From assembly GCF_003334405.1 (NCBI RefSeq), contig NZ_QOWM01000005.1: DNA of 64,000 bases. One strand, written 5' to 3'. Below the pieces are notes generated by a model, which did not search any database, was not told the origin of the DNA, and worked only from the letters and a program-made list of their open reading frames with translations. Positions 1,643 through 2,073 of this stretch are shown one piece after another (position 1 is the stretch's first letter; each line of letters starts with the position of its first letter). The position numbers were made by a program, and so were the translations under genes. Origin of the DNA: Escherichia coli. Its GTDB lineage: Bacteria > Pseudomonadota > Gammaproteobacteria > Enterobacterales > Enterobacteriaceae.

Positions 1643-1664
1643 AATTGTGATATAGTTCACAAAA
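1643..1664. promoter_or_regulatory. predicted CRP-binding site in pdeC-yjcB intergenic region
   Basis: aattGTGATatagtTCACAaaa: perfect TGTGA-N6-TCACA half-sites with AT-rich flanks. Confidence 0.5.
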
Positions 1665-1791
1665 TTAATGAAACAAACAGAGTGTTTCATTTTTGTGTTC
1701 TGCAAGCCCCGCGATAGCCAGAGTGTACCACGCCTCCCGTGAACAACGCCGCGCTGTCCAGGGCATCGGCTCTTTTCAGAGGAATTGTTTG

Positions 1792-2073
1792 ATGGCTACC
1801 CTCACCACTGGCGTGGTTCTTCTTCGCTGGCAACTTCTTAGTGCCGTAATGATGTTTCTGGCCAGCACACTCAACATCCGTTTTCGTCGGTCTGATTATG
1901 TCGGGCTTGCGGTGATCAGCAGCGGTCTGGGCGTTGTTTCCGCCTGTTGGTTCGCAATGGGGTTGCTTGGCATCACAATGGCGGACATCACCGCTATCTG
2001 GCACAACATCGAGTCGGTGATGATAGAAGAGATGAATCAGACACCGCCACAATGGCCAATGATTTTGACCTGA
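1792..2073 (+). CDS. yjcB: small uncharacterized membrane protein YjcB (93 aa)
   Basis: ORF 1693..2073; internal ATG at 1792 gives MATLTTGVVLLRWQLL..., hydrophobic, matches recalled YjcB length. Confidence 0.8.
   Translation: MATLTTGVVLLRWQLLSAVMMFLASTLNIRFRRSDYVGLAVISSGLGVVSACWFAMGLLGITMADITAIWHNIESVMIEEMNQTPPQWPMILT

Follow-up and report, generated by a model that had tools for sequence, protein, structure and literature searches.

A probable cAMP-CRP operator superimposed on the yjcB core promoter, and an adjoining conserved inverted repeat, in Escherichia coli and related enterobacteria

Results and discussion

Organization of the pdeC-yjcB region

The stretch of DNA analyzed here (64,000 nucleotides, called the window throughout) contains the pdeC(yjcC)–yjcB–ssb–uvrA region of the E. 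coli chromosome. The pdeC (yjcC) gene starts at an ATG at 1362 on the minus strand and is divergent from yjcB (1792-2073, plus strand), which codes for a protein of 93 aa belonging to the YjcB family (PF15940). This small membrane protein is uncharacterised and is induced by antibiotics, superoxide regulators and acid. Downstream of yjcB lie ssb (minus strand) and then uvrA (plus strand). Relative to K-12 MG1655 the window is reverse-complemented, and positions were converted as K-12 coordinate = 4276833 - window position, a map that recovered the annotated start codons of both pdeC and yjcB.

The gap between yjcB and ssb has been described as integration hotspot 39, which in some E. coli strains carries an 18-kb Detocs/dGTPase defence island (PMC11728103). 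In the window this gap (2074-2171) held no island and contained only a convergent terminator, with weak Phe_leader-like Rfam matches. The spacer between pdeC and yjcB is interrupted in E. coli T16R by an IS1 element (489-1186 of locus L085, NZ_CP046716.1), and in this strain pdeC is annotated as a pseudogene with an internal stop.

A CRP site in the pdeC-yjcB spacer

The original prediction placed two perfect CRP half-sites, separated by 6 bp, in the spacer between the divergent genes. The motif TGTGA-N6-TCACA was indeed read at 1646-1661 (TGTGATATAGTTCACA), with agreement at 10 of 10 core positions, inside a putative 22-bp cAMP-CRP operator spanning 1643-1664 and centered at 1653.5. The distances given for it were also correct, the end of the site being about 131 bp from the yjcB ATG (1792) and 284 bp from the pdeC ATG (1362). 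This was the single exact match to TGTGA-N6-TCACA within the 64 kb, where 0.08 would be expected by chance.

The site was then scored, as had been proposed, against a position weight matrix for CRP, which was derived from 150 SELEX-derived boxes (Shimada et al. 2011, Table S3) with the present site excluded. It reached 17.26 of a possible 19.89 bits, the top score of the window, and would rank 8th among the 150 boxes; none of 100 random 64-kb sequences attained this score. The runner-up in the window was TTTGATAAAAATCACA at 25627-25642 (15.6 bits), which coincides with a published SELEX-chip box in the malM-ubiC spacer and served as a sanity check on the matrix.

The site had been thought undescribed, which proved wrong: it is an already known CRP target with several earlier descriptions, most of them in tables and supplements. 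PhyloScan (2007) ranked yjcB second to third among E. coli intergenic regions for Crp (in reduced E. coli sets with independent species omitted). In the genomic SELEX-chip analysis of Shimada et al. (2011, Table S3) purified cAMP-CRP bound the yjcB<>yjcC spacer in vitro, with the box given as TGTGAACTATATCACA, and this target had no RegulonDB entry. In Klebsiella pneumoniae CG43 the identical 16-mer was reported at -382 to -367 of yjcC; the transcript measured there was that of yjcC, not yjcB, and it was 2.85-fold higher in a delta-crp strain, and direct repression was proposed by the authors. No CRP ChIP at yjcB was reported in the main texts that mention this gene, and yjcB was absent from the PPTP-seq supplements (Nat Commun 2023). 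The present analysis makes two modest additions. The sharing of one 16-bp sequence, fixed throughout the family, by the operator and an extended -10 element was not found stated in the searchable papers, and neither was any description found there of the conserved repeat at +4 to +28.

The CRP site overlaps the yjcB core promoter

Shimada (2014) assigned to yjcB a constitutive sigma-70 promoter of the form CTAACA-15-TATAGT, which in the window corresponds to a -35 hexamer at 1630-1635 and a -10 hexamer at 1651-1656. The 6-bp spacer of the CRP box is exactly this -10 hexamer, and the TG at 1648-1649, within the TGTGA half-site, occupies the extended -10 position (TGnTATAGT); the promoter assignment and the sequence together define an extended -10 element, TGaTATAGT, at 1648-1656 on the plus strand. 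In re-analyzed Cappable-seq data of MG1655 treated with novobiocin, rifampicin or tetracycline, the primary start of yjcB maps at K-12 4275169 on the minus strand, which is the A at 1664 on the plus strand of the window; this position comes from a single re-analyzed data set, obtained under antibiotic stress.

The start at A1664 lies 7 nt past the -10 hexamer and 3 bp past the end of the right half-site TCACA. The 22-bp CRP site covers about -21 to +1 of yjcB, with the dimer axis at about -10.5, and thus overlaps the -10 hexamer and adjoins or includes the start, as an operator placed over a promoter does. A center at -10.5 is far from the positions used in class I or class II activation (near -61.5 or -41.5). 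These results indicate that the position of CRP over the yjcB promoter has the geometry of repression by occlusion.

Transcription from 1664 gives a 5' untranslated leader of 128 nt in E. coli (1664-1791, plus strand), and the leader ranges from 46 to 130 nt in other genera. A leader block, CGATAGCCAGAG, at 1711-1723 was kept in the genera with long leaders of about 120-130 nt (Escherichia, Salmonella, Citrobacter, Klebsiella and Raoultella) and was missing where the yjcB leader is about 60 nt (Enterobacter and Lelliottia).

Upstream of the promoter, MarA ChIP-seq identified a marbox, gcaataaaagtcacg, at 1604-1618 (about -60 to -46 from the yjcB start), and yjcB is cited in the same report as a SoxS ChIP-exo target (PMC5684230). 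Only the A-rich core of this marbox was kept beyond Escherichia. Between the marbox and the CRP site, column conservation in 78 sequences revealed a block, CTGG(C/T)GAA(T/C)AAA, at 1626-1637 on the plus strand (-38 to -27), over the -35 region. This block was nearly invariant in the 78 sequences, yet it is a weak match to a -35 element; a marbox-like element of class II, or some other operator, may lie here. Position 1626 is A in the window and C in 95% of the species, in four other E. coli/Escherichia strains and in the aligned E. albertii.

Conservation of the site among enterobacteria

Orthologous regions were collected from 80 loci, one genome per species, of which 79 were usable. They were retrieved via the YjcB protein and not via the DNA site, and the sample is therefore unbiased towards the latter. 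The 79 loci represent 78 species and one contaminant E. coli copy: a 9.5-kb contig labelled Flavobacterium paronense (L003, NZ_JAUFQN010000013.1) has a yjcB region 100% identical to the window, which almost certainly reflects contamination of that assembly by E. coli.

In each of the 79 usable loci yjcB was preceded by (T/C)GTGATA(T/C/G)AGTTCACA, whose ten core positions showed 0-1 mismatches. The genera represented were Escherichia, Salmonella, Citrobacter, Enterobacter, Klebsiella, Raoultella, Kosakonia, Phytobacter, Leclercia, Lelliottia, Trabulsiella, Yokenella and others. The site was also constant within E. coli, among strains down to 95% identity, and in E. albertii. In the 78 sequences the segment from -38 to -3 was almost invariant, and the sequence was variable farther upstream and past +30. 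The distance from the site to the yjcB ATG varied from 64 to 148 bp, indicating a constraint linked to the promoter rather than to the coding sequence.

Response of yjcB and pdeC to loss of crp

The original prediction proposed catabolite control of one of the two divergent genes. Such control is supported by the SELEX-chip binding and by the response to crp deletion; the gene concerned is yjcB, and the direction is repression. A 2026 transcriptome of E. coli W3110 gave 474 TPM for yjcB in the delta-crp strain against 155 TPM in the wild type at pH 5.5 (about 3-fold). In the same study yjcB was up in delta-crp at pH 7.5 as well, and qPCR confirmed the effect. The pdeC gene was missing from the delta-crp differential lists of that study and was found only in the delta-rpoS (RpoS-dependent) lists.

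We considered whether the CRP site could mainly govern the divergent pdeC, via a distal promoter or looping, as the identical 16-mer upstream of yjcC in K. pneumoniae CG43 and the higher yjcC mRNA in its delta-crp strain might suggest. In E. coli, however, the only reported pdeC promoter is the constitutive TTTTCA-16-TATAAA (Shimada 2014), with its -35 at 1410-1405 and its -10 at 1388-1383 on the minus strand, about 245-270 bp from the CRP site. The response to crp deletion also points away from pdeC, and the register of the site with the yjcB -10 and start was fixed in every species. On the pdeC side the flank at 1586-1625 was poorly conserved and held no conserved class I or class II promoter. 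Column conservation revealed no conserved promoter-like sequence 40-60 bp from the CRP site in that direction, and a scan of the spacer found no sigma-70 consensus pair. Since the sequence on this side is unconserved, the site has no conserved promoter by which to influence pdeC, and we regard control of pdeC as its main role as unlikely.

Two specific arrangements were tried and rejected. One was a minus-strand promoter using the reverse complement of GTTTCAT as its -35, and the other a class II pdeC promoter with its -10 near 1620-1626; in both cases the needed -10 positions were unconserved and the consensus scan was empty.

The conservation of the 16-mer has to be divided between the promoter and CRP. 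The promoter role alone, through TG and TATAGT, explains part of it: the spacer reads TATAGT in 91% of the 78 sequences, a constancy demanded by the -10 hexamer and not by CRP. These elements would be conserved regardless of CRP, and the palindrome could then be a by-product of an extended -10 promoter, with no physiological role for CRP. On the other hand, the TCACA half-site (1657-1661) and the G at 1647 were invariant in all species and have no known core-promoter role, the constancy of TCACA being demanded by CRP and not by the core promoter, and the left half-site varied solely from T to C at its first position. SELEX moreover showed binding of CRP to the spacer, and deletion of crp alters yjcB expression, so that a by-product is a very unlikely explanation.

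Our preferred reading is that the 16-mer is a genuine cAMP-CRP operator which coincides with the yjcB core promoter and represses yjcB by occlusion, pdeC not being the primary target in E. coli; we consider this probable. A CRP dimer at about -10.5 and RNA polymerase would be mutually exclusive on the yjcB promoter, so that cAMP-CRP would repress yjcB through occlusion. Activation of yjcB would come from upstream, through MarA and reportedly SoxS, at a promoter responsive to antibiotic and acid stress, and pdeC would be driven by its own promoter about 245-270 bp away. We infer that the effect of crp is direct and exerted by occlusion; it could be indirect, the crp-deletion strain having broad physiological changes.

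The classic example of a CRP-repressed promoter with the CRP site over the core promoter and start is cyaA P2. Like promoters of that type, yjcB has a good-consensus CRP box over the -10/+1 region and is expressed at a higher level in a crp mutant. It differs from them in that the spacer of the CRP box is itself the -10 hexamer and a half-site supplies the extended -10 TG, the same 16 bp being fixed across about 78 enterobacterial species. A CRP box that doubles as a -10 element would explain why yjcB rises, and does not fall, in crp mutants.

The yjcB promoter also resembles those of the MarA/SoxS/Rob regulon in its marbox and MarA ChIP-seq peak, its citation as a SoxS ChIP-exo target and its antibiotic-induced start. 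Unlike them it appears to bear a superimposed CRP operator, which would act as a carbon-status veto, a combination that was not found described in the searchable papers; yjcB may thus be a natural example of such a veto on a MarA/SoxS promoter. For annotation, the site would be better assigned to yjcB as a repressor site than to pdeC as an activator site. This assignment bears on the claim from Klebsiella that CRP directly controls a c-di-GMP phosphodiesterase.

An inverted repeat at +4 to +28 of the yjcB mRNA

Just downstream of the CRP site the original prediction described an 8-bp inverted repeat, ATGAAACA-N7-TGTTTCAT. It is exact at 1668-1690, with 0 expected, and its arms are in fact 9 nt long: the full repeat is AATGAAACA-N7-TGTTTCATT at 1667-1691 on the plus strand (arms 1667-1675 and 1683-1691), corresponding to +4 to +28 of the yjcB mRNA. 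The TTTT said to follow it was present in Escherichia and was not found in the other genera. The repeat starts 5 bp past the CRP site, and the centers of the two elements are 25.5 bp apart. This repeat is the only part of the region that has no published or convincing explanation.

In Escherichia a further inverted repeat of 7 nt, CACAAAA/TTTTGTG (1658-1664 and 1691-1697), flanks the 9-bp repeat on both sides and shares bases with the right half of the CRP site. The outer and inner repeats combine on the minus strand into a stem of -11.9 kcal/mol (z = -3.1), a feature of Escherichia only.

The repeat was strongly constrained among the orthologues. GTTTC was invariant in 76 distinct sequences; the 3' arm GTTTCATT was present in 62 of 78 sequences and began 22-23 nt past TCACA in 70 of 78 species, and the gap between the arm cores was 9-10 nt in 73 of 76. 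The repeat is, on this sequence comparison, part of the same conserved module as the CRP/promoter block. One core pair was broken in 33 of the 76 species (TGTAAC or TGCAAC against GTTTCA) and was never compensated in the 3' arm. This uncompensated change in the 5' arm, together with the invariant GTTTC, suggests recognition of the sequence itself rather than of its pairing.

The two likeliest identities of the repeat are a stem-loop at the 5' end of the mRNA and the operator of a protein that binds beside CRP. A stem-loop starting at +4 could stabilize the yjcB mRNA against 5'-end-dependent decay, and given the start at 1664 the stem would begin 3 nt from the 5' end. A hairpin with GUUUC as its 3' arm was the minimum-energy fold in 55 of 76 species (mean dG -6.1 kcal/mol; mean z -2.2 against shuffles). 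Some covariation was seen at flanking pairs, the first inner pair being A-T in 33 species, G-C in 11 and G-T in 12, and the second outer pair A-T in 46, T-A in 4 and G-C in 1; in Kosakonia and Phytobacter the stem was lengthened by G-C pairs. On the other hand, the E. coli RNA forms a 9-bp AU-rich hairpin with 2 G-C pairs (-6.9 kcal/mol) that is unexceptional against dinucleotide shuffles (z = -1.24), RNAalifold on a MAFFT alignment found no consensus structure (0 pairs), and an Rfam search gave no match. The core pair broken in 33 of the 76 species speaks against pairing as well, and a pure stability element would have no need of an invariant GUUUC. A stabilizing role is therefore put forward only tentatively, as a possibility that we would not expect to hold.

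The leader of ompA is an example of a 5'-terminal stem-loop that stabilizes a bacterial mRNA. As in leaders of this type, the yjcB stem starts within a few nucleotides of the 5' end; unlike in them, it is weak, AU-rich, broken in many species and partly invariant in sequence.

If the repeat is instead an operator for a DNA-binding protein working with CRP, CytR would be the best candidate. CytR binds only beside CRP, and its SELEX consensus is AATGYAAC-N(about 10)-GTTRCATT; its octamers are spaced by 0-4 nt or by about one helical turn, and the half-sites at nupG are 9 bp apart. At yjcB each of the arms, AATGAAAC and GTTTCATT, agrees with its CytR octamer in 7 of 8 positions, with a spacer of 9 bp between them, and no other pair of this kind occurs in the window, where 0.36 would be expected per 64 kb. 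The 5' arm reads TGTAAC or TGCAAC in 33 of 76 species, fitting the Y of the consensus, and the combination of invariant GTTTC with uncompensated substitution in the 5' arm agrees with constraint on sequence over pairing. In 70 of 78 species the distance to the CRP core is held at 22-23 nt, and the spacer stays at 9-10 bp. A strong CRP site adjoins the repeat, 5 bp upstream, and a single CRP site is also the arrangement at cytRp.

Against CytR, the 3' arm has T where the consensus needs G or A in 76 of 76 species, whereas GCA or TACA is preserved as the core of the candidate half-sites that we scanned at deoP2, udp and cdd, which have their 1-2 mismatches elsewhere. Known CytR promoters belong to CRP-activated nucleoside-catabolism genes and usually have two CRP sites, whereas at yjcB CRP would already repress alone. 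The gene was not mentioned in those CytR data sets that could be reached. Further, the motif was matched after the repeat had been seen and with many regulators considered. An operator of this kind thus seems doubtful, and the case for CytR as the protein partner is weak.

The arrangement can be compared with the CytR/cAMP-CRP complexes at deoP2, udp, cdd, nupG, tsx and cytR. Like these, yjcB has an inverted repeat of octamers with arms about one turn apart beside a strong CRP site, and, like real CytR sites, the repeat is well conserved among orthologues despite its deviation from the consensus. Unlike in these, the core GCA/TACA is changed to AAA/TTC in E. coli, the 3' arm reading TTTC in every species; there is one CRP site, the repeat is placed past the start, and the gene codes for a stress-induced small membrane protein. 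We would hold with little confidence that the module from -38 to +28, which is conserved in the Enterobacteriaceae, is a composite switch in which TG(A/T/C)AAC-N9-10-GTTTCATT is the operator of a partner docking on CRP past the start, either CytR with a non-canonical half-site or another regulator. If that were true, the CRP-dependent co-repressor logic of the CytR type would reach a MarA/SoxS stress gene.

The attenuator-like hairpin suggested by the original prediction did not hold up. A run of TTTTT follows the 9-bp stem in E. coli, as in an intrinsic terminator or attenuator in the yjcB leader, but the stem has only the 2 G-C pairs and the dG given above, a terminator scan of 1363-1800 was empty, outside Escherichia the T run is replaced by TTCGAT, TTCATG, TTACG and similar sequences while the repeat is kept, and the tables of Adams et al. 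(2021) show no 3' end within the yjcB leader, although yjcB expression may have been low in that study; this explanation is highly improbable. The only 3' end mapped near yjcB by Adams et al. (2021) is that of the ssb terminator, antisense to yjcB.

Several other candidates were tried and rejected. A second CRP site about 52 bp downstream, in the style of a CytR cassette, was represented only by an unconserved TGTGT half-site at 1694-1698 that has no right half. A small ORF or leader peptide from the ATG at 1668 (MKQTECF..., 24 aa) was discarded, its start codon and frame being unconserved: many species have TTG, GTG or CGA in place of the ATG, the Citrobacter and Enterobacter groups have a stop directly after it (ATG-TAA), and the reading frames differ in length. 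Duplexes between the 5' element and the ribosome-binding region of yjcB had energies no better than those of shuffles (mean z +0.44, 79 sequences). The sites of Cra, PurR, GntR, TyrR, OmpR, PhoP, CpxR, ArcA, EvgA and TorR and the marbox were compared by eye, as consensus sequences, with the repeat or the -35 block, and none agreed with it in spacing as well as in orientation.

In Salmonella, Kosakonia and Phytobacter (L010, L039 and L034) the yjcB start codon lies within GTTTCATGG, which repeats the GTTTCAT motif of the 3' arm; this recurrence at the start codon may be a coincidence.
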